IMG/VR virus record: IMGVR_UViG_3300045988_175774
Length of the DNA: 46,533 nt
DNA from: a virus
Direction: 5' to 3' (one strand)
Shown: positions 4,900 to 19,117 of the stretch, in pieces
Layout of the letters: each line of letters begins with the position of its first letter
How positions within the stretch are numbered: position 1 is the first letter of the stretch
The notes under the pieces: generated by a model
Told to the model about the DNA's origin: nothing
The model's input: only the letters and a program-made list of their open reading frames with translations
Database searches by the model: none
Translations under genes and position numbers: made by a program

Positions 4900-5600
4900 A
4901 AATGATTTGAAAATTTTAAGGTTTAAATAAATTAGGAAAGTTTTTTAGAAGGTATGAGAAAAAGTAAGAAAAGAAGTATAGTATACTTAGAGAATGGCAA
5001 AGAGTATTGCTGAATAATAACAAAGAGTTGGGAAGTTTTACTAAAAACGAGGTGTAGTTTTTTGGTTAGAAGAGTATGTAAGAGAGTGTTTAAATTATAA
5101 GAGAAGTATGGGAGTGCGGAGTTGAGTTTAATTAAAGTGCTTCCGCTTTTGAAATACAAGGTTAAATAAAAATTGTGGGTTACAGAATTGCTTAAATAAA
5201 ATTATTAAAATTTTGCGTGAGGAGTTTGATTTTGGAGAGAATTAAGGGTAGTTTTAATAAAATATAAGGATTGGATTAAAGGCGTGTGGGATTAAGGTAA
5301 TAAAATATTTTAGAATTAGAGAGAATTGAGGATAGGTTAATAAAAATAATAAGACTGGATAAAGAAAATTTGATGTTTAGATTAAGAGAGAGTATAAAGT
5401 TGGATTAAGAGAGAAGAAGGTTGAAGTATATAAAATAATAAGCGGAAATGAGGATTTTGAGATTGGAGTATGCGAGAGTAGAATTGGAGTGTAGAGAGGA
5501 TGAGAGTGAGGCATGAGTCTGAAAACATGGCAGAATATGTGAAAAAAGTGTGAAAAAATTGTGAAAAAAATTGTGAAAAAAATTGTGAAAAAAATTGTGA
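4900..5600 (+). other. about 700 nt non-coding purine+T tract with almost no cytosine on the plus strand
   Basis: Per-line counts give 0-6 C per 60 nt and G about 28%. Only low-complexity spurious ORFs occur on either strand. Confidence 0.8.
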
Positions 5601-5601
5601 G
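5538..5601 (+). repeat. tandem (t)tgtgaaaaaa(a) repeat, 5 copies of 12-13 nt
   Basis: gtgaaaaaagtgtgaaaaaattgtgaaaaaaattgtgaaaaaaattgtgaaaaaaattgtga. Confidence 0.9.
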
Positions 5602-5625
5602 GGGTCAGTCTCACTCTCCCCTCTC

Positions 5626-5656
5626 CCCTCCTACCTCAGAGCTCTTTATACGAGCT
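5626..5656 (-). terminator. hairpin cagagctc-tttatac-gagctctg overlapping the stop of 5646..6041
   Basis: Inverted repeat inside the only GC-rich patch of the region. Confidence 0.4.
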
Positions 5657-6041
5657 CTGAGAGGAATTTTCTAATAATTTCATCATCTGATAAAGCTTTT
5701 TCATTCTCCCGTTTTACATCTCTTTTCAGTTTATCTGTATCTACTCTTCTAACTCCAAATCTTGCCCTTGAAAGATTACCCATTTTACCAAAAGCCTCCA
5801 TAGTCTTTTCCATCTTAGTTAACTCTGTCATAAGATTCTTTCTATCCTCAGCAGATTCTTTTTTATCAATTGCCCCAAGAGCAATTCCATACGTTACAAA
5901 CGCGTCAACCAATTTGTTTCTTGCATCTACAATCGCCTTTGTGCGGTTTTCCTTGGTCTGCTCCGCTTCGATCTCAGCTTTTACCGCCTTAAGAATTTCA
6001 TCTGTTGTTTTGCCTTCAGCGATCATTTTTTTAATATCCAT
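5646..6041 (-). CDS. hypothetical protein, helical and charged
   Basis: 131-aa ORF with RBS aaaaggagaac; a TGaTATAAT extended -10 sits upstream at ~6089-6102. Confidence 0.6.
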   Translation of the reverse strand: MDIKKMIAEGKTTDEILKAVKAEIEAEQTKENRTKAIVDARNKLVDAFVTYGIALGAIDKKESAEDRKNLMTELTKMEKTMEAFGKMGNLSRARFGVRRVDTDKLKRDVKRENEKALSDDEIIRKFLSELV

Positions 6042-6641
6042 AGTATGTTCTCCTTTTGAAATGTTTATTTGTTTTTCTTTATGTATATATTATATCAAAA
6101 AATTATAGAAAATTCAAAGGGGAAGACATCTTTCTAGCTATTGTTGAGCTTAATTAGTTTCCAAAAATTTTAAATGAGATAAGGCTCGACGTAAAAATGG
6201 AAGGCGGAAAATAAAAATGGCTTTTTTTACTATTGTATCATATATTTTATTAAAAATCAAGCGGAGAGAAGTGAGGTATGCCATAATTGCGGGATTCTAG
6301 AAAGCCGAATGGAAATTCCAAACATCTAGGAAAAAAGCCCATATAGGCGATCTTTGGGGTAGGTCGGATCCGAGTCCTTTGAACTCGGACCGCTGATTAT
6401 ATCACAGCCGCCGCGTTTTGTCAATAGGCAAATTATACAAATTTTTCATTATTTTTTTAGTAATATTGCACAAATAGTCATTTTTACCAAATTTTCATTA
6501 AAAAATAAGATTTTTTTGGTAAAAATGACTAAAATAAATAAAAATGTACAAAAAAATAGCCAAAAACCGCGTAATTTTTGGCTATTTTGTATAGAATATA
6601 GAATTTTATTGAATTTTTATAAGAAATTTTGGTTATTTTGT

Positions 6642-6680
6642 ATAGAATAGTCAGAAATGTAAATTTTCTGACTATTCTAT
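6642..6680. terminator. 16-bp perfect hairpin downstream of 6706..7107 (T-run on the plus side)
   Basis: atagaatagtcagaaa-tgtaaat-tttctgactattctat. Confidence 0.45.
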
Positions 6681-6705
6681 GTAATTTTTAGTTACCTCAG
6701 ACTGC

Positions 6706-7107
6706 TTACTCCTCTACAGTTTCCTCTTCTTCTTTTGCAAGAGAAAAGTAAGGAACTCTTTTTTCAATTGTCCTGACCACTTCTTCAGATTCGACAAGCT
6801 GTTTAAGAAGAGCAGATAACTTCTGAGGAGAAAGTTTGTTCATCTCAGAGTTTTCTTTAATCATGGTTGTAACTGTAACAGGTTTACCAAATAACTCCAG
6901 AGCCACAAGAATGAGCTTTTTAATTTCCTCATTTTCTTTCTGATTTTTGGTTTTTTTACCGCTGGAAGATTTTTTATTCAACAGCTCAATTTCATGGCTG
7001 AGAAAGTTAAGTGCTTCTTCTTTTGGTTCAAAGTCACTTTCTTCCAGAAAAGCTCTAATAGTTTCAAACCAATCTTTTTTTGTCATTTTGTCTTTCATCA
7101 TATTCAT
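6706..7107 (-). CDS. hypothetical protein, family A paralog 1 (winged-helix-like core, acidic C-terminus)
   Basis: Paralog of 8408..8827 with a shared block ELFGKPVTVTTMIKEN..KLS.QKLSALLK..VVRT.EKRVPYFSLAKEEEE. RBS aaagaaagaggt. Confidence 0.65.
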   Translation of the reverse strand: MNMMKDKMTKKDWFETIRAFLEESDFEPKEEALNFLSHEIELLNKKSSSGKKTKNQKENEEIKKLILVALELFGKPVTVTTMIKENSEMNKLSPQKLSALLKQLVESEEVVRTIEKRVPYFSLAKEEEETVEE

Positions 7108-7134
7108 TACCTCTTTCTTTCTTTTGATATATTT

Positions 7135-7163
7135 ATTATAGCATACTTTTTTATTTTTGTCAA
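7135..7163 (-). promoter_or_regulatory. consensus promoter TTGACA-N17-TATAAT for 6706..7107
   Basis: plus attata at 7135-7140 and tgtcaa at 7158-7163; the promoter-plus-leader cassette is duplicated at 7417..7445. Confidence 0.65.
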
Positions 7164-7194
7164 TTACTTTTTTATTTTTTTTCTTTTCTGGTGC

Positions 7195-7389
7195 TTACTT
7201 AATATAAGCACCAGCAATAGACTTAACAGAGCCATCCGCGTTGAAAAAGATAACATTATTTTGAATAACGTTGATACCTTTATTCTTTGCAAAATTTCTG
7301 AACACAAAGTCTGTATTCCAGAGTTTAATAAAATCAGCTTTTCTCATGTTTGCAAAACCTTTTGTGTAGTTCATTGTTCTCATAGTCAA
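7195..7389 (-). CDS. small hypothetical protein (64 aa)
   Basis: Own copy of the promoter/leader cassette (leader ..tatatcaaaagaaagaaagaggtattgactATG). Confidence 0.5.
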   Translation of the reverse strand: MTMRTMNYTKGFANMRKADFIKLWNTDFVFRNFAKNKGINVIQNNVIFFNADGSVKSIAGAYIK

Positions 7390-7416
7390 TACCTCTTTCT
7401 TTCTTTTGATATATTT

Positions 7417-7445
7417 ATTATAGCATACTTTTTTGCTTTTGTCAA
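7417..7445 (-). promoter_or_regulatory. consensus promoter TTGACA-N17-TATAAT for 7195..7389 (cassette copy 2)
   Basis: plus attata at 7417-7422 and tgtcaa at 7440-7445; about 60 nt is identical to 7109-7170. Confidence 0.65.
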
Positions 7446-7452
7446 TTACTTT

Positions 7453-7758
7453 TTAATAAAAATAACTGTCTAAAATCATACTTTCTACAATAAGATTCTT
7501 ATTATCATAATAAGCAAGGGCAATAGAAGTTGCGTAAGCGTCAAGCCCTGGACTTTCAAAAATACATTCAGAAGAGACACTAAACTTATAGTTTTTTTGC
7601 TCAGGATTTTTTTCTAAGAAATCAGAAATAGCTTCACTTAAACGCTTGCCATTTTCATTCATTTCCATATAATTCTCTCTTTCGGAATCCCAAAAACCAT
7701 CTTCTTCCAAAAAAATACAAAGATTACTCATTACGTCTTCGAATAAATTTTTTGCCAT
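7453..7758 (-). CDS. hypothetical acidic protein (101 aa)
   Basis: ORF with RBS; no recognisable motif. Confidence 0.55.
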   Translation of the reverse strand: MAKNLFEDVMSNLCIFLEEDGFWDSERENYMEMNENGKRLSEAISDFLEKNPEQKNYKFSVSSECIFESPGLDAYATSIALAYYDNKNLIVESMILDSYFY

Positions 7759-8024
7759 GCTATCTACCTCTCTTGTTTTTATTTATTATTTATTTTATGT
7801 ATACATTATATCAAAAGAAAAAATAAAAGTCAACGGCATTTTGCACAAAGTATAATAAAATATTTTGTCTATTTTGACTATTGACAGGTTTAGCATTGTG
7901 CATAATAGAGAAAATTGGCGGATTTTGATATAAAATTTTGTTCATTTTACCTATTGACAGAGATTTTTGTACAAAACGGAGAATTTTGGGATAAAAAATT
8001 TTTTATTTTTGTGCATTTTTTCTC

Positions 8025-8118
8025 TTGACAAAATCGTCAGCGTGTGGTATAATGGATATTTCGGTCGCCTTGACCCAAGGCGACCCGCTATTATACCATA
8101 CTTTCGGGTGCTTGTCAA
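8025..8118. promoter_or_regulatory. element A: face-to-face consensus promoters flanking a GC hairpin
   Basis: Plus side: ttgaca 8025-30, 17-nt spacer, TGgTATAAT 8048-53. Hairpin: ggtcgcc-ttgacccaa-ggcgacc at 8063-8085. Minus side: TTGACA-N17-TGgTATAAT (plus tgtcaa 8113-18, attata 8090-95). Confidence 0.6.
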
Positions 8119-8407
8119 TAGGCAAAATAAACAAAATAAAAAATTTTTTGAGCCTTATTTTTGTTACATTTTCACAAAATTATAGACTGGGACTCTTTGT
8201 GCAACAATACTAAAATTATAAAAATTTTTTGGCTATTTTTTGTAATTTATGTGCATTGACTTTTTTGTTCTCTGGTATTTTTGAATAAAAAACATCCCTC
8301 CAGCAGCGGATTTTTTGTGCAAAAAGTAGAAAAAAAATGCATAAAAAAGGAGGACGGATTTTGTGCAATCCGCCCTCTTGACAAGGTTTATAAGTTACTT
8401 TTTAGTT

Positions 8408-8827
8408 TTACTCTTCTTTCTCAGTTTCTTCTTCTTCTTCTTTTGCAAGAGAAAAGTAAGGAACTCTTTTTTCAACTGTCCTGACTACTTTGCCCCCTTC
8501 AATCATTTTTTTCAACAGTGCAGATAACTTCTGAGAAGAAAGCTTACTCATTTCGGCGTTCTCTTTAATCATAGTTGTAACTGTAACAGGTTTACCAAAC
8601 AGCTCTAAGGCAATTTCAATAAGTTCCATAAGCTCCTCATTTTCTTTAATGTGAGCTGTTTTCTTTTTGCCTGGTGCTGAAGATTTCTTATTTAACAGTT
8701 CAATCTCGTGATTGATAAAGTCAAGTGTTTCTGTTTTCTTGTCAAAATCTTCTGTTTTTTCTACGATACCTGCCAGCAGTTTAAAAAAGTCTTTTTTTGT
8801 CATTTTGTTTGTGTTTGTCATAATCAA
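8408..8827 (-). CDS. hypothetical protein, family A paralog 2
   Basis: Paralog of 6706..7107; the 3' coding DNA is also near-identical (..ctcttcttcttttgcaagagaaaagtaaggaactctttttt..). Confidence 0.65.
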   Translation of the reverse strand: MIMTNTNKMTKKDFFKLLAGIVEKTEDFDKKTETLDFINHEIELLNKKSSAPGKKKTAHIKENEELMELIEIALELFGKPVTVTTMIKENAEMSKLSSQKLSALLKKMIEGGKVVRTVEKRVPYFSLAKEEEEETEKEE

Positions 8828-8862
8828 ATCCCCTTTCTTTCTTTAAAAATTTTTTTGGTGGC

Positions 8863-8900
8863 TTGCGGTCGGTGGTCGATTTTGCTGACCATCCGAACCG
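8863..8900 (-). other. GC-rich nested stem-loop in the 5' leader of 8408..8827
   Basis: gcggtcgg-TGGTC-gattttgc-TGACCA-tccgaaccgc lies between the promoter (8933..8961) and the RBS. Confidence 0.5.
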
Positions 8901-8932
8901 CTTGAAATTGTTTATCACTTTGTTACAATGTT

Positions 8933-8961
8933 ATTATATTACTTCTTTTTGCTCTTGTCAA
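8933..8961 (-). promoter_or_regulatory. consensus promoter TTGACA-N17-TATAAT for 8408..8827
   Basis: plus attata at 8933-38 and tgtcaa at 8956-61. Confidence 0.6.
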
Positions 8962-8969
8962 GCACTTTT

Positions 8970-9344
8970 TTATTTTTTCTTTGATGGTCTATGCTTGATT
9001 AACGAAATTGAATATTCCGCACCGCCAATTTTGAAAGTAATTTCTTTCTGCGGATTTTTGATTATCACGCTTTCAAAGTTCATTTCCTCAACTTCTTTCA
9101 AGTGACTTGCCAAAATTTCAATGATTTTGACTTTTTCCGCATCCAATTTTACCTCACGTTTTTTCGTGCTTTTTTTCTCTGGTGTACTCTGAACATAGTT
9201 CTTAATGCCTTTAGCCTTAATCTCCATTTCCGCCATTTCAAGAGCTTCCTCTTTAGTTACCGGTTCTCCGTCCGCTTCAAATTCTTTCATCAGCTTAATA
9301 GCAAGCTTTTCGATTGCATCTGCGGTCACTGTTGTTTTAGCCAT
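8970..9344 (-). CDS. hypothetical protein (124 aa)
   Basis: ORF with RBS aaaaaggatgtgatataacATG. Confidence 0.6.
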   Translation of the reverse strand: MAKTTVTADAIEKLAIKLMKEFEADGEPVTKEEALEMAEMEIKAKGIKNYVQSTPEKKSTKKREVKLDAEKVKIIEILASHLKEVEEMNFESVIIKNPQKEITFKIGGAEYSISLIKHRPSKKK

Positions 9345-9392
9345 GTTATATCACATCCTTTTTAAAATTTACTATTAACTTGTTACAATGGT

Positions 9393-9421
9393 ATTATATC
9401 GCATCTTAGCTTAAAAGTCAA
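9393..9421 (-). promoter_or_regulatory. promoter TTGACT-N17-TATAAT for 8970..9344; a ~60-nt cassette is duplicated at 10161..10219
   Basis: plus attata at 9393-98 and agtcaa at 9416-21; copy 2 has attata at 10183-88 and agtcaa at 10206-11. Confidence 0.6.
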
Positions 9422-10128
9422 GCACTTTCGTGTAATTCTTTTCTTTTTTTCTGCGGAAGTCTCCAGCATGACGGCTTAATACTTCTATCCATTTTTTTAT
9501 GCTGGTCAAAACATTTTTTCATAATTTCGATTTCAATTTTTACATCTTCTAAGCCCGTATGAGATTCTACAAAATCAATATTCTTTTTAATATATTTATA
9601 GCATACCTCAGCGTTAGTTAAAAGATTGCCTTTTTCAGACTCAAATCCGTTTTTCTCAGCAAATTTGATATAGGTGTTTGTACTTAAAATCATCTGACAA
9701 GCCATGTTCCAAATACAAAAATATTCTGTACCATAAGGGAAAAACCAGCGAATAAAACTTTTGCTATGGTATCTGATAGCATTATTCAAAGCTTTTCTAT
9801 CAAAAGCCATATTGTAAGCCCCAACTTTTTTCACATTATATTCTTTCATGTCTGTAAACATCTGTTTTCTAATATTGAAAATGCTTTTCATGGTTCTTTT
9901 CCCGCTTTTTAAATCATCCCAGTATTTCGGAATTTTTTCAGCGTAGTAGGCACTATTCATAGCTTCTTTCAAGTCGATAAACGTTTCAGCGACTACAAAG
10001 CTTCTTTCGGTGACAATGTTACCGTGTCTATTTACAATAGCATAGCCAATATCATAAGGAATTGGCTCGTTTACACTATTCGCAGTTTCTGTATCCAATA
10101 CCATGAAAAACTCTTTTCTTCTACTCAT
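9418..10128 (-). CDS. DnaQ-like DEDDh 3'-5' exonuclease
   Basis: Exo I MVLDTETAN, Exo II MAFDRKAL and Exo III ESHTGLEDV are present. Start set at ATG 10128, with RBS gaggaaa 7 nt upstream; the track start at 10143 is a TTG. Confidence 0.7.
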   Translation of the reverse strand: MSRRKEFFMVLDTETANSVNEPIPYDIGYAIVNRHGNIVTERSFVVAETFIDLKEAMNSAYYAEKIPKYWDDLKSGKRTMKSIFNIRKQMFTDMKEYNVKKVGAYNMAFDRKALNNAIRYHSKSFIRWFFPYGTEYFCIWNMACQMILSTNTYIKFAEKNGFESEKGNLLTNAEVCYKYIKKNIDFVESHTGLEDVKIEIEIMKKCFDQHKKMDRSIKPSCWRLPQKKRKELHESA

Positions 10129-10217
10129 TTTTGATTTCCTCAACTTTCATTTATTTTTTTACTATTAACTTGTTACAATGGTATTATATCGCATCCTAGC
10201 TTAAAAGTCAAGCACTT

Positions 10218-10403
10218 TCATAAAATTTTTTCAAAATCTTTTAACTGCTGACTCGCAGATAATTCTTTGATTTTATATTTATGCAATCTATTGTTTAAAC
10301 AATACTCGCACCCACCGTGGTTTCTGCAATGCACAGACACGGCTTTTGCTTTGCGGTATTCTTTTCTATGCTCTTTTCCACTTCTGATTGCTTTATCCAT
10401 CAT
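10218..10403 (-). CDS. small Cys/His-rich putative zinc-binding protein
   Basis: HCRNHGGCEYC motif in a 61-aa ORF. Confidence 0.45.
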   Translation of the reverse strand: MMDKAIRSGKEHRKEYRKAKAVSVHCRNHGGCEYCLNNRLHKYKIKELSASQQLKDFEKIL

Positions 10404-10420
10404 GTTTAACCACCTACTTT

Positions 10421-10894
10421 CTATAAGAAATTTTTTAATACTTCCATGATATTGTTTACATCAAAACTATTTTTGCCCCACTCTTTTCTATTGCGTTCCT
10501 CATCATCAAAAAGCCATCCCTTACAATCAACGACAGTACTTTTCGGTGTGCCATAGTTTACAATTTTGATTTCGTCCCATTTAATACTAGGTAAGTGTTT
10601 TTCAAGCCATGCAAGTTTTACACTTGTTACCGCTGTATTATAAGAAGCTGACCCGCTTTTACTTAACCAGCTTACAATACCAATTCTATAGCCATTAGCT
10701 TGTAACTTGTGAAGCACTCTTGCGAAAACTGAAAAATTGAAAAGTGGTTTTGCTACTTTGTATGGTGTAGTGTCTTCTTTTTCCAAATATGCTAACCAGT
10801 TTTCCACGCCGTAGAAGTTAGCAAGTGTGCCGTCCATGTCAAAATAAATAGTTTCTTTTGTGCTCATCATTTTTTTAACTGTATTATCCATCAT
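10421..10894 (-). CDS. HAD-superfamily phosphatase, resembling the 5'(3')-deoxyribonucleotidase (NT5C-like) family
   Basis: HAD motif I IYFDMDGTLANF (DxDGT); size about 157 aa. Confidence 0.65.
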   Translation of the reverse strand: MMDNTVKKMMSTKETIYFDMDGTLANFYGVENWLAYLEKEDTTPYKVAKPLFNFSVFARVLHKLQANGYRIGIVSWLSKSGSASYNTAVTSVKLAWLEKHLPSIKWDEIKIVNYGTPKSTVVDCKGWLFDDEERNRKEWGKNSFDVNNIMEVLKNFL

Positions 10895-11331
10895 AATAAT
10901 TACCAGTCCTTCCTTTTTTGATTATCGCAAGTGCCTTGCGACCGACCGCTCATTATGTAAGCTTTGCTTTATTTCTGTTTTAAGTTTAATGTCCTTCGAC
11001 AAGTATATATTACTACATCTTAGCGAAAAAGTCAAATTTATTTTTTATTGTGCAAAGTGATGAAATTTTACATAAAAATCATAGTATTTTTGTTAAAATG
11101 TACAAATGTAGAAAATTAATGCGGATTTAGGCGGATTCTTGTGCATTTTGCTACCTTAAATATTACATATTGTGTTTCTGCGTGTCAAAAAAGGTATGAT
11201 TTTTTATTAAAATTTCGTCACTTTGCACAAGGTGTAGAAAATTTTGATATTATTTTATTAAATTTTGTGCATTTTGTATACCATGTCAAAAAATGGGATT
11301 TTTTTAATTTATTTTTTGTGCAAATTACCTA

Positions 11332-11435
11332 TTGACAAAAAGGTGCTAGATGTGGTATAATAAAATTTCGGGGTGCCCCGACCCCGAACGGACTTTGCCC
11401 TCTTCCATTATAACATACTCGAGCCACCTTGTCAA
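11332..11435. promoter_or_regulatory. element B: face-to-face consensus promoters flanking a GC hairpin
   Basis: Plus side: ttgaca 11332-37 and TGgTATAAT 11356-61. Hairpin: ttcgggg-tgccccga-ccccgaa at 11367-88. Minus side: TTGACA-N17-TATAAT (tgtcaa 11430-35, attata 11407-12). Confidence 0.6.
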
Positions 11436-11503
11436 GAGTTTTTTTCAAAAAAAATGCACAAATTTTGGGATAAAAATTTTGAAAAATTTGTGCATTTTTT
11501 CTC

Positions 11504-11599
11504 TTGACAAAATGTCTCAACTATGTTATAATGGAAGGCTCGCGAGCAGTCAATGCGAGCCGAGCCGGCTATTATACCACATTTTCCGCGACTTGTCAA
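11504..11599. promoter_or_regulatory. element C: face-to-face consensus promoters flanking a GC hairpin
   Basis: Plus side: ttgaca 11504-09, 17-nt spacer, tataat 11527-32. Hairpin: ggctcgc-gagcagtcaat-gcgagcc at 11537-61. Minus side: TTGACA-N17-TGgTATAAT (tgtcaa 11594-99, attata 11571-76). Confidence 0.6.
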
Positions 11600-11721
11600 C
11601 CCCTTTTTAAAAAAATTTTTATTTTCGTCATTTTGCACAAAAATAAAATTCAGCATTTTGCACAAAAGAACAAAAGTCTAATTTACTTAGACTTTTGTTA
11701 TAAAAATTTTTCTATTTATGA

Positions 11722-11913
11722 CTAATTATTTTCATCATTTATTATTAAATTCACGTGATTTCTTTTTTTTCGTTTCATTATTGCTTCATAAGCAATTTCT
11801 ACTATTTCTTTTGAAATGTTTTGATTCTCTGCTATTTTACAGAATATAATTACTGTGTCATTTTCAAATCCTTTTGCTTGAATCATTTTATCCATCATCT
11901 CTGTCCTTGTCAT
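11722..11913 (-). CDS. small hypothetical protein, family B paralog 1
   Basis: MTRTEMMDKMIQAKGFEND..; RBS agagagg. Paralog of 12890..13030. Confidence 0.5.
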   Translation of the reverse strand: MTRTEMMDKMIQAKGFENDTVIIFCKIAENQNISKEIVEIAYEAIMKRKKRNHVNLIINDENN

Positions 11914-12202
11914 TATTGTTTTCCTCTCTTTCTTTAACTGTCTTTATTATATCACAAGAAGCTGATTTTGTCAATCCCTTTTTATAAAAATCAACTCCTT
12001 CAATTTCAAAACATTTGCGATAAGCGTTAATACAATTATACCAAGAATCATCATCGCTTACACACTTTGTCAGAATTTCATCATTCCATCCATCTTTAAA
12101 CAGGGGAAGCCAAACATTAGTTATTACGTCTTCATTAATGTATTTTCTGATGAACGAATTCATTCGTCTGAGATAATATTTTCTAATTTCAATTATTTCC
12201 AT
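11888..12202 (-). CDS. hypothetical protein (104 aa)
   Basis: ORF overlapping neighbouring genes; no recognisable motif. Confidence 0.5.
   Translation of the reverse strand: MEIIEIRKYYLRRMNSFIRKYINEDVITNVWLPLFKDGWNDEILTKCVSDDDSWYNCINAYRKCFEIEGVDFYKKGLTKSASCDIIKTVKEREENNNDKDRDDG
11946..11974 (-). promoter_or_regulatory. consensus promoter TTGACA-N17-TATAAT for 11722..11913, lying inside the 3' end of the upstream ORF
   Basis: plus attata at 11946-51 and tgtcaa at 11969-74. Confidence 0.55.
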
Positions 12203-12205
12203 CTC

Positions 12206-12403
12206 TTAAAAACTCCATTCTTGTTTTGCTCTTTTTTTGATATCATTATAATTTATTTTGTTAATCCTTTTTCTCCTCTTTAAAATTCTATTGACTTGTT
12301 TTTTAATATCCTTTAAATCTTCAAGACTGCAATAAATTTTATCACCCCGACTGTCTTTAATTGTATAAGGATAACTCTTATCATCGCTTTTTTCTACCGT
12401 CAT
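12206..12403 (-). CDS. small hypothetical protein; start moved to the ATG at 12403
   Basis: RBS agagaggtaagg precedes ATG (MTVEKSDD..); it shares the attatcaaatgaaagagagg leader. Confidence 0.5.
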   Translation of the reverse strand: MTVEKSDDKSYPYTIKDSRGDKIYCSLEDLKDIKKQVNRILKRRKRINKINYNDIKKRAKQEWSF

Positions 12404-12431
12404 TTTCCTTACCTCTCTTTTATTTGATAAT

Positions 12432-12460
12432 ATTATACTATAGGTCTTGGCTTTTGTCAA
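12432..12460 (-). promoter_or_regulatory. consensus promoter TTGACA-N17-TATAAT with a palindrome over the -35 (ataggtcttg..caagacctat)
   Basis: plus attata at 12432-37 and tgtcaa at 12455-60. Confidence 0.6.
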
Positions 12461-12476
12461 GACCTATTTTATTTTT

Positions 12477-12731
12477 TTATTTTGGAAGAACAACTTCAGC
12501 TTTAATCGGTTCTACTTTCTGAGATGCTTTAAAAGCTCTAATCTGTCCAGTAGCAAGGTTAACCGCCATGACCTTCCCTTGATGTTTGTCTAAGAAAAGA
12601 CCACTACTTTTATCAATAACCATGTATAATCCAATTTCATCAGTACCAGTTCTTTTACTAAAAAAAGTACTTCCTACTGTCAATTTCTCGATACAAGTTC
12701 CTACTGTTTTTTTATCAAAGTTGATTTTCAT
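12477..12731 (-). CDS. hypothetical protein; start moved to the ATG at 12731
   Basis: RBS agagagg precedes ATG (MKINFDKK..). Confidence 0.55.
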   Translation of the reverse strand: MKINFDKKTVGTCIEKLTVGSTFFSKRTGTDEIGLYMVIDKSSGLFLDKHQGKVMAVNLATGQIRAFKASQKVEPIKAEVVLPK

Positions 12732-12763
12732 TTTTGTTTTCCTCTCTTTCATTTGATAATATT

Positions 12764-12792
12764 ATTATACTATAAAGTCGGCTACTTGTCAA
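12764..12792 (-). promoter_or_regulatory. consensus promoter TTGACA-N17-TATAAT for 12477..12731
   Basis: plus attata at 12764-69 and tgtcaa at 12787-92. Confidence 0.6.
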
Positions 12793-12889
12793 CTATATTT
12801 TTTAAATGTTTAATTGTTTTTTCTCATTTTTACTATCTTTTTCTTTTTTCTTTGTCGCATGAGTTTTAAAACTCATGCGACTTTTACTA

Positions 12890-13030
12890 TTATTTTATTA
12901 CTACTGCGTAAGCAAGTTCTACTGTTGTATTTGAAACTTCGCTTTCTGCTAATTTACAAAACCAGATTGTTAGTTCATCTTCAAAACCTCTTTCTTTAAT
13001 CATTTTATCCATCATTTCTTTTCTTGTCAT
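12890..13030 (-). CDS. small protein (46 aa), family B paralog 2; missed by the ORF track
   Basis: rc translation MTRKEMMDKMIKERGFEDELTIWFCKLAESEVSNTTVELAYAVVIK; the DNA is collinear with 11780-11915. Confidence 0.45.
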   Translation of the reverse strand: MTRKEMMDKMIKERGFEDELTIWFCKLAESEVSNTTVELAYAVVIK

Positions 13031-13062
13031 ATCTAGCAACCACCTTTCTTTGAACTATCTTA

Positions 13063-13091
13063 ATAATATCACAAAAGCTTGAGTTTGTCAA
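13063..13091 (-). promoter_or_regulatory. promoter TTGACA-N17-TATTAT with a 14-nt palindrome over the -35
   Basis: plus ataata at 13063-68 and tgtcaa at 13086-91; palindrome cacaaaagcttg / caagcttttgtg. Confidence 0.55.
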
Positions 13092-13119
13092 GCTTTTGTG
13101 ATAATTTTTTTTACTTTTT

Positions 13120-13455
13120 TTATTTAAAATTACTATGCAATTCAATTACTTTACCGCAGTTGTCGCAAGTCCAATAATAAATTGTTCCAACGTTCCTATG
13201 ATTATCGGCGTTTGCAAATCGCCATTTATTGCCACACTCTATACAATAACCATTATTCCATACGGCTTTATCATTTGCTTGTTCACGCACTATTAAATTA
13301 CTAATAGTACAACCTATCAAAATAGCAATGATAATACCTAAAATCCATTTTAATATAGCTTTTCCATTTTCTAAGAAAATATTTACAAGCATCAAAGACA
13401 TAAAACTTCCTACAGTTACTGACATTAAAATTGCTACAATAATGAATTTAATCAT
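13120..13455 (-). CDS. membrane protein with two N-terminal TM helices and a C-terminal zinc ribbon
   Basis: Hydrophobic N-terminal half; CIECGNK...CDNCGK. Confidence 0.6.
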   Translation of the reverse strand: MIKFIIVAILMSVTVGSFMSLMLVNIFLENGKAILKWILGIIIAILIGCTISNLIVREQANDKAVWNNGYCIECGNKWRFANADNHRNVGTIYYWTCDNCGKVIELHSNFK

Positions 13456-13473
13456 TTTAACTACCTCTTTTTC

Positions 13474-13656
13474 TTATTTAATTTCTTTAAAGATACTTTC
13501 ATCTGTGGCATTACATAACTTATTATTTACGTTATACTTAGCATAAAGCCACTTTTTACAATCCCATTTTAGCGGACAATGATAACAAGTTGTAGTAAAA
13601 GCCGTGGTTTCCATCGGAATTGCAAGAAATATCTTTTTAAGTTTTTTAGCTATCAT
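13474..13656 (-). CDS. small Cys-rich protein
   Basis: 60-aa ORF with a CYHCP..C..C pattern. Confidence 0.4.
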   Translation of the reverse strand: MIAKKLKKIFLAIPMETTAFTTTCYHCPLKWDCKKWLYAKYNVNNKLCNATDESIFKEIK

Positions 13657-14110
13657 ATTATTTTTTTCTCCTTCCTTTTAACTATCTTTATAATACCATA
13701 TTAAAATTAGTTTATCAATCCCCTTTTATAAAAAATTATAAAAAAGGAAGATTTTTTTATCTTCCTTTTACTTTTGCTTTATTCTTGTTTTTTATTTTTA
13801 TCTTAATAATCTTAATAAATAGTTATTCTCATGCTCTTTTAAAAAAGCGTTAATTTCTTCTATCGTTTCAGCGTAAATCTCGCCTGTCTCAGTGTCTACT
13901 AACATCAATTTTTTACTTCCTAAAAATAATCCTAAATCTAACATATTTAAGCCCTCCATTAAGAAATTTTTACCAGATAACCGTTTGTATTTTTTTCCAC
14001 TGAAAAAATGTATTGATTATCTTTTAAGTATTTTTTTATAGTTTCAAATGCTTTTCGAGTTGTCAGTAACATTGTCATATTTCTTTACCTCTCTTTCATT
14101 TGATAATACT

Positions 14111-14139
14111 ATGATACTATATTTCCTTGCTTTTGTCAA
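14111..14139 (-). promoter_or_regulatory. promoter TTGACA-N17-TATCAT with the shared leader, upstream of a ~37-aa ORF (about 14080-13967)
   Basis: plus atgata at 14111-16 and tgtcaa at 14134-39; leader attatcaaatgaaagagaggtaaagaaatATG. Confidence 0.45.
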
Positions 14140-14195
14140 GCGTTTTAGGAAAATTTTTCAAAGATTTTTTTATGCGGATTTCCACTGAAAAAACC

Positions 14196-14265
14196 TGAAC
14201 TTAAGGAGATTGTAGGCGAACCGACTCCAGAACCGTCAAGTTCGGGAGTCCCTTTTTTATTTAAG
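14196..14265. terminator. GC-rich hairpin with T-runs on both strands (candidate bidirectional terminator)
   Basis: gactcc..ggagtc and gaactt..aagttc stems; plus side followed by cttttttattt, minus side followed by ttttttcag. Confidence 0.4.
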
Positions 14266-14574
14266 GAATGATTCTAAAGCCTTATAGCATAAATCAGCGT
14301 TTTCTTTATCTTTTATGCTAGTACCTTTAGAAAAGTCATTCATAGCGGCTGTTAGTAATTCCGATACTGAAATAAATTCAAATACCAGCTGTAAAGCCGC
14401 CAATTCATTAAGATTGACTTTTTTTCATCGGTTCTTTCCTATCTCCTTTTTAAATATTTTATTTTCTTTACATTATTACTATATCAAATTTTTTAATAAA
14501 ATTCAAAAAAGATACTTTATCTAAATAAGCAAAGAAAAGGGCTGAACCTATTCCGCCCTTTTCCCGCTTTTCCG

Positions 14575-14853
14575 CTATCCTATTATCTCTGCATCTGTAA
14601 TAATATCATCTGTCACGTTATCAGTCCCTAAAGAATCCATGTATAATTTAACTTTATCTTTTGCTTTAAAGCCATCTCCATAGAAACTCCAAACATGTTC
14701 ATAGTTATCCATGACAACCACTTCATTATTGAAAGAGCTAATCACTTTAGCTTCTCTTGTGTACTTAGTAAAGCTACCAAAACCGCAAATACTACTTAAA
14801 GTTGCACTTACTGCTAATCCTAAAATCACCTTTTTCACTATATCTAACTCCAA
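14575..14853 (-). CDS. small secreted protein (signal-peptide-like N-terminus)
   Basis: N-terminal hydrophobic segment VILGLAVSATLSSICGFG. Confidence 0.5.
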   Translation of the reverse strand: MELDIVKKVILGLAVSATLSSICGFGSFTKYTREAKVISSFNNEVVVMDNYEHVWSFYGDGFKAKDKVKLYMDSLGTDNVTDDIITDAEIIG

Positions 14854-15122
14854 CCTCTTTCTTTCTTAATCTTTTCGTATCTTTCTTTTGCTTCTTCTTC
14901 AATCTTCTTTTTGTTGTATACTCTAACTTTCATTCTGGTATATCCATCTCTTTTTAAACACCAACGTTCTGTTTTACGTTGTACTACTATCTTGTCGATA
15001 GCCCTTTGCTGTACCTCTTGCTTATGAGTGTTATAATATTTGATACTCTCAATTTCTAATAAAGTACTTATTGGTCTGTACTTATTGGTTACACTAAACA
15101 AAGTACATTGAATTGTTATCAT
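14844..15122 (-). CDS. small basic protein
   Basis: K/R-rich 92-aa ORF; promoter at 15148..15176. Confidence 0.5.
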   Translation of the reverse strand: MITIQCTLFSVTNKYRPISTLLEIESIKYYNTHKQEVQQRAIDKIVVQRKTERWCLKRDGYTRMKVRVYNKKKIEEEAKERYEKIKKERGWS

Positions 15123-15147
15123 CTTATCACCTCTCTTTTCAAGTATT

Positions 15148-15176
15148 ATTATACTACCTTATTATACCATTGTCAA
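15148..15176 (-). promoter_or_regulatory. consensus promoter TTGACA-N17-TATAAT for the 14844..15122 operon
   Basis: plus attata at 15148-53 and tgtcaa at 15171-76. Confidence 0.55.
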
Positions 15177-15329
15177 GCTTTTATTTACAGTATTTTTATT
15201 TATTTTAATGTATATTTACTCATGTTATTAAGACTAACAGTTAGTTTTAAATACATATTTATATCTTTTTTATAAATGGTAAAATAAAATATAATATAAA
15301 TATTATCATACTATTTTATTTAGTATTAT

Positions 15330-15585
<256 letters not shown>

Positions 15586-16240
15586 CTTAAGCTTAACCTC
15601 TCATTATAGCACCTTTAGCTCATTCTGTCAATAGACATTTTACACAATTTTTTCTTTAAAACTTTGTGCAGATTGCCCATTGACATTTCTTGTCTATTGA
15701 CATTTTGTACAAAAATCAAATTATATTTTTGTATACTTTTACCATTGACAGGGTTTGTCAATAGACATAATGTACAAAATTTTCCATGTATTTTTGTACA
15801 ATTTTACCTATTGACAAGTTCATTTTAGGAAAATATCTTTGTACATTTTTTACAAAAATTTAGCCAAAAATTTGTGCATTTTGCCTATTGACAAGCTTCT
15901 CGGAGCGTTGCGAAAGTATACGCTCCGACGATAGATGGCAAGCTACCAATAGCCAATAAAAATTCTAATCTTCTTGCTTTATTTTAGTTATTTAAAGAAT
16001 TTATTTTATTAGTTTAACTCTTTCTCCTCTTTGCTTAAAATAATGTGTTCAAAACTCTTCTGAACAAAAAGCATATCCTCTTTGGAAAAAGATTTGAAAA
16101 ATTATTTGTTAGGCGGTATCTTGTTGCTTCTTGCTCAAAAGAAATGCTCAAACTACAGACCATACTTAAACATAATGCCGGGGTATATTAAAGGATTAAA
16201 ATTTTTTACTTTTATAAAAAGATAGTGTTCTCCACAATTC

Positions 16241-16400
16241 TCTCTCCAAAAATTTTTTCAAATCTAAAAGTCTAAAAGTCTAAAAATAAAATCAAAAAAC
16301 GAGAATTAAAAATCTCTCCAAAAATTTTTTCAAATCTAAAAGTCTAAAAATAAAATCAAAAAACGAGAATTAAAAATCTCTCCAAAAAATTTTTTTAAAC
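16241..16400. repeat. tandem direct repeat of about 64-72 nt, about 2.3 copies
   Basis: tctctccaaaaattttttcaaatctaaaag(tctaaaag)tctaaaaataaaatcaaaaaacgagaattaaaaa appears twice, followed by a partial third copy. Confidence 0.85.
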
Positions 16401-16484
16401 AAATTAAAATAAAATAAAATAAAAAAGGATTTTAAAAAAATAAAAATATTTCTCATTTTTCTCTTTAAAAAACTACCCGCGATG

Positions 16485-17240
16485 TCAAGCAAGGCTCCGA
16501 AAGGCGTCTAAATTAGATCCATTAGGGATAGCAAAAATTATTTTTTTAAAAATATAATTATTAGATAATTTCATAAATATCTTTTTAACTTCATTAGGAT
16601 CTTGACCAAAAGCTCCGCATCCAAAAGCTCCTAAGATTAGAACATCAACTTTATTTTTCGCCGCAATGTCTAAAATAAAAGAAATTCTTTCTTTTAAAGC
16701 CTTAGTATTTTCTTCATCTGTTATCCCATTACGCTTAGCTTCTTTTTTATTCGGGGCTGCACAAGTGATAATATCACAATTATAAAAATCCTCAAAAAGA
16801 ACATTTGGACTATAAATTGCTCGATTCCAATATAAACCGCGATTTATTAAGTTTTTATTTTCTCCATAAAAATCTTCTCTTTGTCGTTGCAAAATATTAT
16901 AAAGAATAGATTTATGACATAAACTTTCTTCTTGAGTACTACTTCCTTTTAAAAAACCTCCGCCAGGATATTTAAAAGATGCAAAATTAAGTGCGGCAAT
17001 CTTACTATTAGGAAACTCAGATACAGCTTTTTTAATAGCATTAACAGTATCAGTTTCCCATATTTCTAAATAATTAAGATTTTTTTCATTTGTTTTATTT
17101 GTTTTATTTACAATAGAACCTGGTACGAAACCACTATAATATTTAGTCCTTGCATTACACCATGCGATTTTATCTGAATATTCTTTTTCCATTTTATAAA
17201 AATGATTTATGGCTTGAATAGCTCTTTCTTTTTTATTCAT
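16485..17240 (-). CDS. bacterial-type poly(ADP-ribose) glycohydrolase-like macrodomain (DUF2263 / TIGR02452 family)
   Basis: PARG signature GGG-X7-QEE (PGGGFLKGSSTQEES) plus the macrodomain diphosphate loop VLILGAFGCGAFGQDP. Confidence 0.7.
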   Translation of the reverse strand: MNKKERAIQAINHFYKMEKEYSDKIAWCNARTKYYSGFVPGSIVNKTNKTNEKNLNYLEIWETDTVNAIKKAVSEFPNSKIAALNFASFKYPGGGFLKGSSTQEESLCHKSILYNILQRQREDFYGENKNLINRGLYWNRAIYSPNVLFEDFYNCDIITCAAPNKKEAKRNGITDEENTKALKERISFILDIAAKNKVDVLILGAFGCGAFGQDPNEVKKIFMKLSNNYIFKKIIFAIPNGSNLDAFRSLA

Positions 17241-17260
17241 CTATTAACATCCTCGTTTTA

Positions 17261-17470
17261 TTAAAACATCGCGTTTGCCTGTTCATAATATTTTAATTCT
17301 TGAATCCAAGCGATTGGAATCACCATTTCCGCTTTAGCATATCTTTCCATAGCATCCATGATCTCATGTCTCCTAGTATTGATTATTTCTAATCTGAAAG
17401 TTTCACGCGGAACTAATCCTGCAACTGCAACTGTTTTCTTTGTTTCGTTATTTATAGTTATATTACTCAT
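17261..17470 (-). CDS. small hypothetical protein (69 aa)
   Basis: ORF lying between the PARG-like gene and the SLOG-like gene. Confidence 0.45.
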   Translation of the reverse strand: MSNITINNETKKTVAVAGLVPRETFRLEIINTRRHEIMDAMERYAKAEMVIPIAWIQELKYYEQANAMF

Positions 17471-17471
17471 A

Positions 17472-17819
17472 TTATTTTCCTCCTATTTTAATTACTTTAC
17501 CATGCTTTCCATTCATTTTCATTTTCATAATAATTTTTCTAATTATTGCATCTTTTCCGTCATAAAAAAATATACCAAAATCAATATTTTCTACCATTTT
17601 CTGAATTAATTTATCTATGTTGCGATCAAATACATATTCAATAGGAGCACCATTATTTTCTGCCCATATTTTTCCAATAGACTCCGAGAGCTTCTTCTCC
17701 GTATTCCCGCAAACAACAGTAAATAAATAACATTGCGTTTCGCAGATAAAATCTTCCATAGTTGCGGAGACTAGGCGATTATCTGCGAAACCGCGACTTC
17801 CAAGAATACTAATTCTCAT
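17472..17819 (-). CDS. SLOG-superfamily (DUF2493/YpsA-like) nucleotide-binding Rossmann-like protein
   Basis: N-terminal MRISILGSRGF, then ..VVCGN..G.D..IG.WA..NG.P.. spacing, consistent with DUF2493 phage proteins. Confidence 0.5.
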   Translation of the reverse strand: MRISILGSRGFADNRLVSATMEDFICETQCYLFTVVCGNTEKKLSESIGKIWAENNGAPIEYVFDRNIDKLIQKMVENIDFGIFFYDGKDAIIRKIIMKMKMNGKHGKVIKIGGK

Positions 17820-17900
17820 TTCTTTTTCCTCTTGTTTTATTTATAAAATAATTATAACAAAATTTTTTTAAAAAATCCAATTAAAGTGCTTTAATCAAAT

Positions 17901-17929
17901 TTGACAAAAAAATTTTTTTGTGGTATAAT
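17901..17929 (+). promoter_or_regulatory. consensus promoter TTGACA-N17-TGgTATAAT at the start of the plus-strand structural arm
   Basis: ttgaca at 17901-06 and tataat at 17924-29. Confidence 0.65.
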
Positions 17930-17956
17930 ATAATTGTAAACTAGAAAGGAGAAATT

Positions 17957-19117
17957 ATGACACCAATAACATTAGAAGATGAAGCTTTTGAGGAAAATAT
18001 TTTAAAAGAAGAAAAAAAAATAACAGAAAAACAAATCGAAGAAGAAAATATACAAACTACTATTAAACTAGATTATTCTTTAGAGACTCCTGAAGAGCGG
18101 AATGAATTAGTTAAAAAAATTATAGATAACACTCCTTCTGAGCAATTAACACCTAAATATTTAGAAATATTATCAGATTACATTATTTTTGCTATGGATA
18201 AGCAAGAGCGAAAACAGAAACAAATATTAACTGATAATCATATGGTTACAGTCAATAAAAGAGAAACTTCTTTTGAAGGATTAGTTGGTCGCTTAGAGAA
18301 TGGCGAAGATGGCATTTATAATATGATTGCTAATGATAAGAATATTATTTTTACACCTAAATTTCAAATAACTCAACAGGATATTGCGGAAATCCCTGAG
18401 TTAAAGCAACTTGTAGACGCGATTGCGGAAGTTGAAAAAGCTGAGAAAAAAGCAGTTGGTAAAAAGAAATTTTTATTAAAAAAGCAACTTATTGCTATGA
18501 GACAAGATCAATATGTAATTAGAAGTGCATACAAGCCACCAATTTATTGTATGAACGCAATTAAAAGTTTTAGCAAAATTGATTTTGATGAAAATGTTTC
18601 TATTAGCGGAAATGATGAAATTGAAGATAATAGCTTAGTTTCTTTTTTTAATCCTAAGCACATATCTGCATTATTATGTAACTATTCCCGCCTAAAAGAA
18701 GATGCATGGGGAAAATTCTACAGTGATTCATATTTTTTAATGGAGGATTTAGATACATTAATAGAGAAGACTCTAAGAGATAGTTATCCAATGTATTATG
18801 ACCTCTTGATTTATAAAATAGACGGAAAACAAAATCTTGAAATTCAGAGTCTGTTGAATCAAAAACACAATGTAAAACATTCAGTGGAATATATATCATC
18901 TTTATGGCGGAATAAAATACCTAAGCTATTGTCAGAGCAAGCTCAGGAAGACTATTTAATTTGGTATTATACAACTCAGAAAAAAGGAAAATGGAAAAAA
19001 TGTTCCCGTTGTGGGGAAATCAAATTAGCTCATAATAAATTTTTTTCAAAGAATAAGACAAGTAAAGATCATTTTTACAGTATATGTAAATGTTGTCGAA
19101 ATAAGAAAAATAAATAA
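17957..19117 (+). CDS. hypothetical protein with a C-terminal zinc ribbon
   Basis: RBS aaaggagaaatt; CSRCGEIK...CKCCR at the C-terminus. Confidence 0.75.
   Translation: MTPITLEDEAFEENILKEEKKITEKQIEEENIQTTIKLDYSLETPEERNELVKKIIDNTPSEQLTPKYLEILSDYIIFAMDKQERKQKQILTDNHMVTVNKRETSFEGLVGRLENGEDGIYNMIANDKNIIFTPKFQITQQDIAEIPELKQLVDAIAEVEKAEKKAVGKKKFLLKKQLIAMRQDQYVIRSAYKPPIYCMNAIKSFSKIDFDENVSISGNDEIEDNSLVSFFNPKHISALLCNYSRLKEDAWGKFYSDSYFLMEDLDTLIEKTLRDSYPMYYDLLIYKIDGKQNLEIQSLLNQKHNVKHSVEYISSLWRNKIPKLLSEQAQEDYLIWYYTTQKKGKWKKCSRCGEIKLAHNKFFSKNKTSKDHFYSICKCCRNKKNK

Follow-up and report, generated by a model that had tools for sequence, protein, structure and literature searches.

A 46,533-nucleotide viral DNA (IMG/VR record IMGVR_UViG_3300045988_175774; this whole stretch is called the window here) carries three copies of a compact unit in which a plus-strand promoter faces a minus-strand promoter across a short GC-rich hairpin. 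On sequence evidence, the units are a real, selected regulatory element, and their layout, which recurs across a clade of related gut phages, is probably a working regulatory module.

In each unit of the window, the plus-strand promoter is named A and the minus-strand promoter B. All six promoters match the hexamer consensus at 12 of 12 positions and carry a TGn extension. Between the facing −10 boxes lie 36, 45, and 38 nt (units 1, 2, and 3), with a G+C content of 60-68%. Starts were predicted at the seventh base after the −10 box (the usual 7-nt spacing). The parts of the units are as follows.

8025-8053, plus strand: promoter A1, TTGACA-N17-TGgTATAAT, antisense to early genes; predicted start at ~8058-8063
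8063-8085, both strands: hairpin 1, GGTCGCCTTG-ACC-CAAGGCGACC, 9 nt from the A1 −10 box and 4 nt from the B1 −10 box
8090-8118, minus strand: promoter B1, codirectional with early genes; predicted start at ~8083-8086, within the stem
11332-11361, plus strand: promoter A2, N18 spacer; predicted start at ~11365-11370
11367-11388, both strands: hairpin 2, TTCGGGG-N8-CCCCGAA; terminator-like on the minus strand, where AUUUUAUUAU comes next
11407-11435, minus strand: promoter B2, 18 nt from hairpin 2; predicted start at ~11400
11504-11532, plus strand: promoter A3; predicted start at ~11537-11539
11537-11561, both strands: hairpin 3, GGCTCGC-N11-GCGAGCC; alternative registers reach 11570
11571-11599, minus strand: promoter B3; predicted start at ~11564-11566

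A sequence-only reading of this DNA had described three face-to-face pairs with their stems; all three were confirmed at these positions with the quoted stems present, and shuffled sequences gave none. A composite face-to-face pattern with N17 spacers matched units 1 and 3 and had 0 matches in 100 shuffles. In hairpin 1, 10 bp pair perfectly around a 3-nt loop (−17.8 kcal/mol; z, −4.7), and hairpin 2 is moderate (z, about −2). The class of canonical intrinsic (bidirectional) terminators was rejected for the hairpins, with a U-tract scan passed by the minus strand of unit 2 only.

The architecture was then found in related phages, where the sequence-only reading had suggested looking, as ~47 distinct units. 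An IMG/VR scan for the face-to-face pattern returned at least 120 loci of mixed types. Among the matches listed, a GC-centered group comprised 46 matches (35 distinct units) on contigs of mostly ~60-200 kb, and an AT-centered group (L001, L010, L015, L019, L027, and L036 among its loci) had TTACG..GTAA repeats in the promoter spacers and lay mostly on viral contigs of 25-50 kb. The AT-centered family probably represents repressor-controlled lysis/lysogeny switches. A stricter GC-type pattern matched 25 stretches in all of IMG/VR, and with one mismatch allowed per hexamer, the ~47 distinct GC-rich centers were recovered from ~30 large gut-phage contigs and from phage phAss-1, which has two units (130714-130804 and 132917-133008).

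Pairing in the hairpin is conserved across this family. The sequence-only reading had proposed compensatory variation among the three stems; this fails as covariation among three copies that cannot be aligned, and it holds once 22 distinct units from related phages are aligned. In that alignment, the 8-bp stem was 89.8% paired, against 69% in column shuffles and 30-41% when the partner was slid by 1-3 columns; double-change cells numbered 40, against 16 in shuffles, and the observed score was reached by 0 of 500 shuffles. Single stem positions alternate among C-G, G-C, U-A, and A-U, which argues that pairing, and not sequence, is selected, in support, for the stem, of the earlier proposal that selection acts on function rather than on repeat identity. 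Watson-Crick pairs fill 154 of the 176 stem cells. A G-U strand asymmetry, which would mark the RNA that matters, was absent from these cells (4 G-U pairs on the A strand and 3 on the B strand), and folding energies lean slightly to the A strand at most. Such a lack of strand bias is what use of the hairpin by both strands, or by the DNA itself, would predict. Usually, one flank of the hairpin reads GAAAUUUCC-AUUAUA and the other NNN-AUUAUA, and one subclade keeps a loop motif, ..GNCGTG.., above differing stems.

Spacing is held as well. Hairpin spans are mostly 25-27 nt (seeding with 7-bp arms). The main helix begins 7-9 nt after the A −10 box in 23 of 47 folded centers, with another 9 reaching this class where the fold merely adds outer GG/CC pairs, and it ends 2-4 nt before the B −10 box in 29 of 47.

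The two sides of a unit differ in their distance to the hairpin, in their upstream signature, and in their orientation relative to genes, so the unit is asymmetric. On the A side, GGWAWTTYC is followed by the stem (5-9 nt); on the B side, 3-4 G/C-rich nt precede it, except in unit 2 (18 nt to the stem) and unit 3 (atypical spacing). Nor are the hexamers and stem-loop geometry all that is conserved, as had been claimed: the TTGACAA form of the −35 box, the TG extension, the A-side GGWAWTTYC, and the ~45-65 nt upstream of each promoter are conserved too. Four upstream modules were delimited in the window.

7982-8024, plus strand: A1 upstream module, AATTTTGGGATAAAAA...TTTGTGCATTTTTTCTC, holding a "GGGA box" and a TTTGTGCA motif
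8119-8154, minus strand: B1 upstream module, TTTTGTTTATTTTGCCTA adjoining the −35 box; inverted repeat I2
11289-11331, plus strand: A2 upstream module; repeat family D9
11461-11503, plus strand: A3 upstream module; repeat families D9 and I10

The A1 and A3 upstream regions are ~89% identical over 43-53 nt (repeat family D9), the two arms of unit 1 (I2) are 71% complementary across 65 nt, and a 68-nt spacer (11436-11503) is common to A3 and the divergent B2. The A1 upstream signature recurs at A-type promoters of related phages, where the box reads ACAAATTTYGGGAWAAAAA ... TTTGTGCA and is followed, beyond the box, by a back-to-back promoter (C) of the downstream gene; the B1 motif TTTTGTTTATTTTGCCTA is common to B-type promoters of other phages.

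Four IMG/VR relatives, 93-96% identical over the region and 97-98% identical in the unit regions, have all three units at orthologous sites. Hexamers and stems are free of substitutions in these relatives, and the changes present affect the loop, the promoter spacers, and the upstream modules; among hairpin 1 orthologues, variation is confined to the loop. The interior of hairpin 3 (11537-11566) shows an exact 18-nt inversion between the stem arms in L108 (7030-7056) and a deletion of 13 nt in L080 (~7330-7345); given the inversion, the orientation of this loop is not critical. Both are rearrangements of a type that palindromes promote.

The sequence-only reading had also argued that the units are not a simple miniature inverted-repeat transposable element (MITE). 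This is borne out by their fixation at orthologous sites in the relatives and by the presence of the unit in phAss-1. A repeat derived from a MITE or insertion sequence was rejected: the copies share promoters and upstream modules (71-89% identity) around unrelated central sequences, and the "arms" are promoter modules also present at unpaired promoters. No presence/absence polymorphism was seen among the four relatives, all of which have the units; target-site duplications were not formally searched.

The same comparisons bear on whether the units are by-products, either of promoter/terminator cassette shuffling (as in T4-type PeSLs) or of a selfish palindromic repeat, with inverted copies abutting and the pairing functionless. 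Promoter-upstream modules are repeated often, in both orientations and in some cases without a −10 box, gene-content differences among close relatives fall at cassette boundaries, and the similarity of the arms extends past the hexamers. We nonetheless consider such an origin highly improbable, given a spacing that varies by only a few nucleotides in most of the 47 distinct units, a covarying stem, and different, consistently oriented signatures on the A and B sides. The units are also more conserved than neighboring genes and lack presence/absence polymorphism, and the same gene family stands behind the unit in the window and in phAss-1 despite 39% portal identity.

The window has a G+C content of ~30%. 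Rightward from 17.9 kb, it encodes a sigma-like protein, a large terminase, a portal, and a 2843-amino-acid (aa) tape measure protein. The portal is 76% identical to that of an unannotated gut phage fragment and 39% identical to that of phAss-1; large siphophages of Enterococcus and Bacillus match at greater distance. Near-identical proteins were found on contigs of 134-141 kb. By these matches, the window is part of a siphophage of ~135-140 kb and a relative of phAss-1. According to the phAss-1 paper, members of that group are gut siphophages of ~136 kb whose tape measure proteins are very long and whose hosts are probably clostridia. Hairpin promoters of the N4 type were rejected on the gene content of the window, where the giant 2843-aa open reading frame (ORF) is the tape measure gene and a sigma-like protein is found instead.

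Small leftward genes occupy 5-16 kb. Perfect TTGACA-N16-19-TATAAT sites number 17 in the window, against 0.09 expected; 12 of them are on the minus strand at 6.4-15.7 kb, and each of the 3 plus-strand perfect promoters of this region belongs to a face-to-face pair. From promoter content and gene orientation, 5-16 kb is identified as the early region, predicted to be transcribed by the host polymerase, and the units lie inside it. Neighboring features are as follows.

7805-7833, minus strand: proximal promoter C1, TTGACT-N17-TATAAT with a TTTGTGCA module, directly before the ribosome-binding site and gene 7453-7758
8350-8377, minus strand: intrinsic terminator of the winged-helix gene 8408-8827, located 230 nt upstream of B1, with a T-run confined to the minus strand
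10421-10894, minus strand: NT5C/5'-3' deoxyribonucleotidase-like early gene, downstream of units 2 and 3
11007-11035, minus strand: proximal promoter of the 5'-deoxyribonucleotidase-like gene, TTGACT-N17-TAATAT
11669-11699, minus strand: terminator hairpin of the early operon upstream, where the A3 transcript likely ends although the plus-strand T-run is weak

Along the gene direction, the order at unit 1 is gene 8408-8827, its terminator (8350-8377), B1, the hairpin, the reversed A1 with its upstream module, two modules with a −35 box only, C1, the ribosome-binding site, and gene 7453-7758. The 5'-nucleotidase-like gene is preceded by units 2 and 3 as a tandem and, like gene 7453-7758, has a proximal promoter to itself. 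B is codirectional with the neighboring genes, and A is opposed to them, in every unit of the window and in most related contigs. Of 37 nonredundant units, 25 have an intrinsic terminator for the upstream gene whose end lies 16-22 nt ahead of the B −35 box; in the relatives, the T-run of this terminator merges into a conserved TTTTGTGCATTTTGCCTA-TTGACAA module. Units on related contigs come directly after the upstream terminators, and those of the window 70-230 nt beyond them. Several upstream terminator hairpins in relatives are bracketed by an A-run and a T-run and could therefore also stop the A transcript; a strict scan counts 5 of 37 as bidirectional, and the printed stems suggest more. 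In many relatives, the promoters and an A-run/T-run terminator hairpin appear to bound a region of ~100-110 nt. The nearest downstream start codons are ~270-600 nt from the units, and no ORF was called downstream of A.

Two downstream gene families recur. One is the 5'-nucleotidase-like protein, whose gene follows a unit in phAss-1 as in the window; its function is reminiscent of the phage T5 pre-early gene dmp. The other is a ~125-aa family that adjoins face-to-face units in many related phages and has two window paralogues, 8408-8827 and 6706-7107 (both minus strand; 66% identical), with a C-terminal winged helix in the predicted structure. The best small-domain matches of this winged helix are Z-alpha, followed by MarR, ArsR, and HxlR, all weak (E > 0.01); the Z-alpha-like fold match is a weak lead only, and a role of the paralogues as regulators of the units is possible.

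Tentatively, and with confidence somewhat short of even, we read each pair as a gate on transcription that would work by competition and interference, with exclusive occupancy, a shared 5' stem-loop, and a short antisense A RNA. Geometry, conservation, covariation, and orientation are read directly from the sequence; from them we infer promoter activity, starts, exclusion, transcript ends, and regulatory outcome. Each unit would be a compact early-transcription module read by host primary-sigma RNA polymerase. B would restart transcription in the gene direction just past the terminator of the upstream gene, and the A transcript would run back across B to that terminator as a short noncoding RNA, with an estimated length of ~100-110 nt in most relatives and ~165-320 nt in the window. 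In many relatives, this RNA should end at the terminator hairpin ~50-60 nt past the B promoter.

A promoter-bound polymerase (open complex) protects about −55 to +20, and convergent promoters interfere mutually in coliphage 186 (pR/pL), IS10 (pIN/pOUT), and P22 (Pant/Psar). The sequence-only reading had placed the start sites about 20-30 nt apart, and the predicted start-to-start distances are in line with this (~24, 32, and 25 nt for units 1, 2, and 3). With starts 24-32 bp apart and coverage to about +20, A and B would not both be occupied: both would need the same 15-20 bp of hairpin DNA, each covering the start of the other. Each firing of one promoter would sweep over the other, and short overlapping RNAs or promoter collision would be the natural consequence. 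The pair would set the amount of polymerase that enters the downstream gene from B, a gene that would also be served by its proximal promoter C, back-to-back with A.

With the GC palindrome at the start of both transcripts, the same stem would stand on both RNAs and would shield both from 5'-end-dependent RNases. Such 5'-terminal stem-loops stabilize Firmicute RNAs, and the predicted start of the A RNA, 0-3 nt before the stem, would be the right geometry for a protective structure of this kind; the B RNA would start a few nucleotides inside the stem and retain a shorter version of it. The stem together with the U/A-rich complement of the facing −10 box could give a pause or weak termination. 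Of the roles that the sequence-only reading had listed, antisense action or collision fits best; decoy, RNA-primed origin, and packaging signal found no specific support.

Several points weigh against the gate. All transcript starts and ends are predictions, and the promoter quality of the family is partly a selection effect, as the search demanded consensus hexamers. Hairpin 3 in isolation is not clearly above shuffles (plus-strand z, −1.8; minus-strand z, −0.7), and its spacing in unit 3 (4 and 9 nt) departs from the rule. The predicted B start lies 2-4 nt inside the stem, which shortens the 5' hairpin. Unlike in classical antisense control, the sense/antisense overlap is the hairpin only and lies off any ribosome-binding site. 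Units 1 and 3 are without a good plus-strand terminator (8350-8377 and 11669-11699 are both poor on that strand), so antisense extension of the A RNAs into upstream genes is possible. The weakest part of the model is its regulatory purpose. Throttling a perfect promoter is puzzling for a lytic phage with promoter C already serving the gene. Finally, the GC-rich initial transcribed sequence could impair escape of both promoters, which would favor an alternative in which the units act as polymerase traps.

In that alternative, a bound, slowly escaping polymerase would form a roadblock or insulator against read-through, or the units would sequester or position host polymerase on the entering genome. 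The promoters combine a full consensus set (−35 box, 17-bp spacer, TG extension, −10 box, and GG right after the −10 box) with a 60-70% GC content in the first ~25 transcribed bases, in a 30% GC genome; in E. coli, such consensus and GC-rich features slow promoter escape (T5 N25 versus N25anti). The place of the related-contig units, at operon boundaries, would also suit an insulator. Three sites per genome, however, are too few to titrate the polymerase of a cell, promoter-bound polymerases are usually dislodged by elongating ones, and pure DNA binding leaves the selected pairing of the palindrome unexplained. We judge the trap unlikely.

Half units bear on what the hairpin itself may do. Among GC hairpins with at least one strong promoter aimed at them, 37 have two and ~27 have one (either spacing class). 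Two half units with A only (L031 13385 and L040 4258) consist of promoter, hairpin, short linker, and terminator and look like genes for ~75-nt RNAs, and a third (L083 783) leads into a longer structured RNA. In half units with B only (L031 11930 and L082 2198), an immediate U-run follows the hairpin, i.e., the promoter leads directly into a terminator. The window has one such candidate.

6396-6424, minus strand: perfect B-type promoter without a facing partner, followed by a GC hairpin (~6366-6392), a spacer, and the terminator GCCUAUAUGGGC-U6 (6331-6348)

The stretch 6331-6424 (minus strand) looks like a small RNA gene of ~70 nt and had no Rfam match. Half units keep the hairpin; with or without a facing promoter, then, it is an element near the 5' end of short transcripts.

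These forms could be read as hairpin-RNA factories, which early in infection would release abundant, very short 5'-triphosphate GC-hairpin RNAs from both strands to act in trans, either by engaging a host RNase or RNA sensor (decoy or sponge) or by serving as the ligand of a phage protein. Both strands would give the same stem, and annealing could form a duplex of 24-32 bp. Half units fit this picture in having a perfect promoter, a hairpin, and an immediate U-run or nearby terminator without other payload. The hairpin is the sole element common to the A-only, B-only, and paired forms, its stem is free in sequence with pairing kept, the subclade loop motif sits over different stems, and the winged-helix gene family adjoins many units. 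Stems that vary among units and phages make a sequence-specific target unlikely, however, and short products are not assured from paired units, which have no canonical terminator either way except on the minus strand of unit 2. Mutual exclusion of the promoters would limit output, not double it, and the trans target remains hypothetical. We regard the factory as doubtful, if deserving of some weight. A narrower form, in which the units are dedicated two-way generators, with mutually exclusive promoters of maximal strength that read one palindrome from both strands within minutes of infection, and the hairpins or duplex serve as decoys for RNases or RNA-sensing defenses or as ligands of the winged-helix (Z-alpha-like) protein, seems to us quite unlikely.

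The hairpin could also be a protein-binding RNA or DNA element placed after early promoters, either for antitermination of the lambda boxB/nut kind or as a winged-helix target, with the facing promoter secondary. Putative DNA-binding winged-helix paralogues flank units, the B-side hairpin and U-rich tract resemble an attenuator in need of read-through, and the subclade loop motif is kept while stems covary. Against this, the three window hairpins differ from one another in both loop and stem sequence, a close relative has the interior of hairpin 3 inverted and nothing else changed (which disfavors oriented loop recognition), and no antiterminator gene was identified. A binding site of this sort is very unlikely in our estimate.

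Transcription-primed replication origins, with two convergent short RNAs priming leading strands in opposite directions, are an extremely improbable reading. The geometry resembles a bidirectional start point with AT-rich flanks, and several copies per genome recall the multiple origins of T4. An RNA hairpin, though, would compete with the stable RNA-DNA hybrid that an origin needs; the units have no iterons or DnaA boxes, the minimum of cumulative GC skew lies at ~17-18 kb, away from them, and terminator-bearing half units look like RNA genes.

Set beside known systems, the gate of competition and interference has its closest working analogues in the face-to-face promoters of IS10 (pIN/pOUT), P22 (Pant/Psar), and coliphages 186 and P2. 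In IS10 and P22, the starts of the facing promoters are likewise a few tens of base pairs apart (36 bp and ~69 bp, respectively), and one promoter makes a short stem-loop noncoding RNA antisense to the 5' end of the other transcript. In the window, by contrast, the overlap is ~24-32 nt, the palindrome is common to both RNAs, and the site is off the ribosome-binding site; both promoters of a pair are full consensus, the units occur in three copies and are conserved in the clade, and the window shows no lysogeny genes. Antisense coverage of the translation start, as in cis-antisense control by IS10 RNA-OUT or P22 sar, was not found, the overlap being 24-32 nt of hairpin.

Coliphages 186 (pR/pL) and P2 also have convergent promoters with mutual transcriptional interference. 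In 186, the starts are 62 bp apart, which allows double occupancy; both promoters drive operons and are controlled through repressor operators. The window starts, in contrast, would be too near each other for that, A lacks a gene, and no repeated operator is evident in the promoter spacers of the GC-type units; a lysis/lysogeny switch of the 186 or P2 type was rejected on the last two grounds. The AT-centered TTACG..GTAA family from IMG/VR looks nearer to a 186-type switch than the GC-type units do.

Leader stem-loops offer a further parallel. In the Bacillus ermC and aprE leaders and in E. coli ompA, 5' RNA stabilizers each serve one mRNA; as in the units, the 5' end is followed within a few nucleotides by a stable stem-loop, for which any pairing sequence suffices. 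Here, one palindrome would serve two opposed transcripts, with the effect on stability suggested by analogy.

The T4-type PeSLs are short composite terminator/early-promoter cassettes repeated between small early genes (PMC2839356, PMC4122927). The part from terminator to B fits this description (25/37 units, 16-22 nt), and indels occur at cassettes in both. The PeSL stem-loop, however, is a terminator upstream of the promoter, whereas the selected hairpin here is downstream, at the transcript start; two cassettes are paired head-on, and the phage group and host phylum differ. None of the systems compared combines starts that are too close for both promoters to be occupied, one covarying palindrome at both 5' ends, several early copies in a phage without lysogeny genes in the window, and conservation across a clade.

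The sequence-only reading knew of no described phage element with this geometry, and none was found in Rfam or in the literature searched. An Rfam covariance-model scan of 5000-18000 gave nothing near the gathering score, the literature on convergent promoters with a hairpin in phages and on phAss-1 did not describe the element, and the word "promoter" is absent from the phAss-1 paper. Megablast of 7000-13000 against cultured and deposited phages gave no match, sensitive blastn of unit 1 gave a sole alignment (phAss-1, 70% over 143 nt including flanks), a match retained at the DNA level despite 39% portal identity, and tblastn of the 5'-nucleotidase-like protein returned uncultured gut phage records only; it follows that no cultured model carries the unit. 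CRISPR-repeat mimicry was searched for with hairpin 1 only; 185,579 species genomes gave two isolated hits, both in metagenome-assembled genomes of proteobacteria, and no arrays.

If the gate model holds, it would be a new wiring of early transcription in a lytic phage, in which one of two full-consensus promoters is loadable at a time and a palindrome caps both RNAs. The module is more tightly conserved than neighboring proteins across a clade of ~80-200-kb phages that recur in human gut metagenomes. At ~95 bp (~230 bp with the upstream parts), it is small enough for easy in vitro testing although the phage is uncultured, and it may offer a compact part for steering the direction of transcription in Firmicutes. 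It also points to several probable small RNA genes and to a candidate regulator-binding motif, TTTGTGCA, in phages most of whose proteins are still annotated as hypothetical.

This motif occurs 18 times in the window, against 2.25 expected, and 14 of the 18 copies lie in four AT-rich noncoding islands (6467-6474, 7842-8367, 11264-11666, and 15663-15878). It often stands 9 nt upstream of a TTGACA box, and related phages likewise conserve it ahead of their early promoters; it could bind a protein or be a special kind of upstream promoter element. Seven TGTRYA-N9-TTGACA modules, mostly in alternating orientation and ~65 nt apart, mark the head of the leftward early region (15626-15893); six of them are without a −10 box, and a GC hairpin follows at 15900-15928. 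The cluster could be a regulatory hub or an origin.

In a near-identical 135.6-kb genome, the 5'-nucleotidase-like gene is at ~83 kb, and the gene caller placed zero genes in the unit regions. In phAss-1, a plus-strand coding sequence for a "hypothetical protein" (130698-131642; L122 40698-41642) starts within a unit and covers most of it; this annotation may be spurious. A tRNA scan of the window found no tRNA or transfer-messenger RNA genes. Between 12252 and 13740, the otherwise 93-96% identical relatives give only short matches of lower identity, with breakpoints at promoter cassettes, a pattern that resembles PeSL-like modular gene shuffling. The divergent region between early and late genes holds three direct repeats (TCTCTCCAAAAATTTTTTCAAATCTAAAAGTCTAAAA..., 16241-16427, spaced by 64-72 nt) and a run of ATT triplets (15545-15575). 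Gene 16485-17240 (minus strand) encodes a microbial-type poly(ADP-ribose) glycohydrolase domain (Pfam E value, 3.6e-26) and may have an antidefense function.

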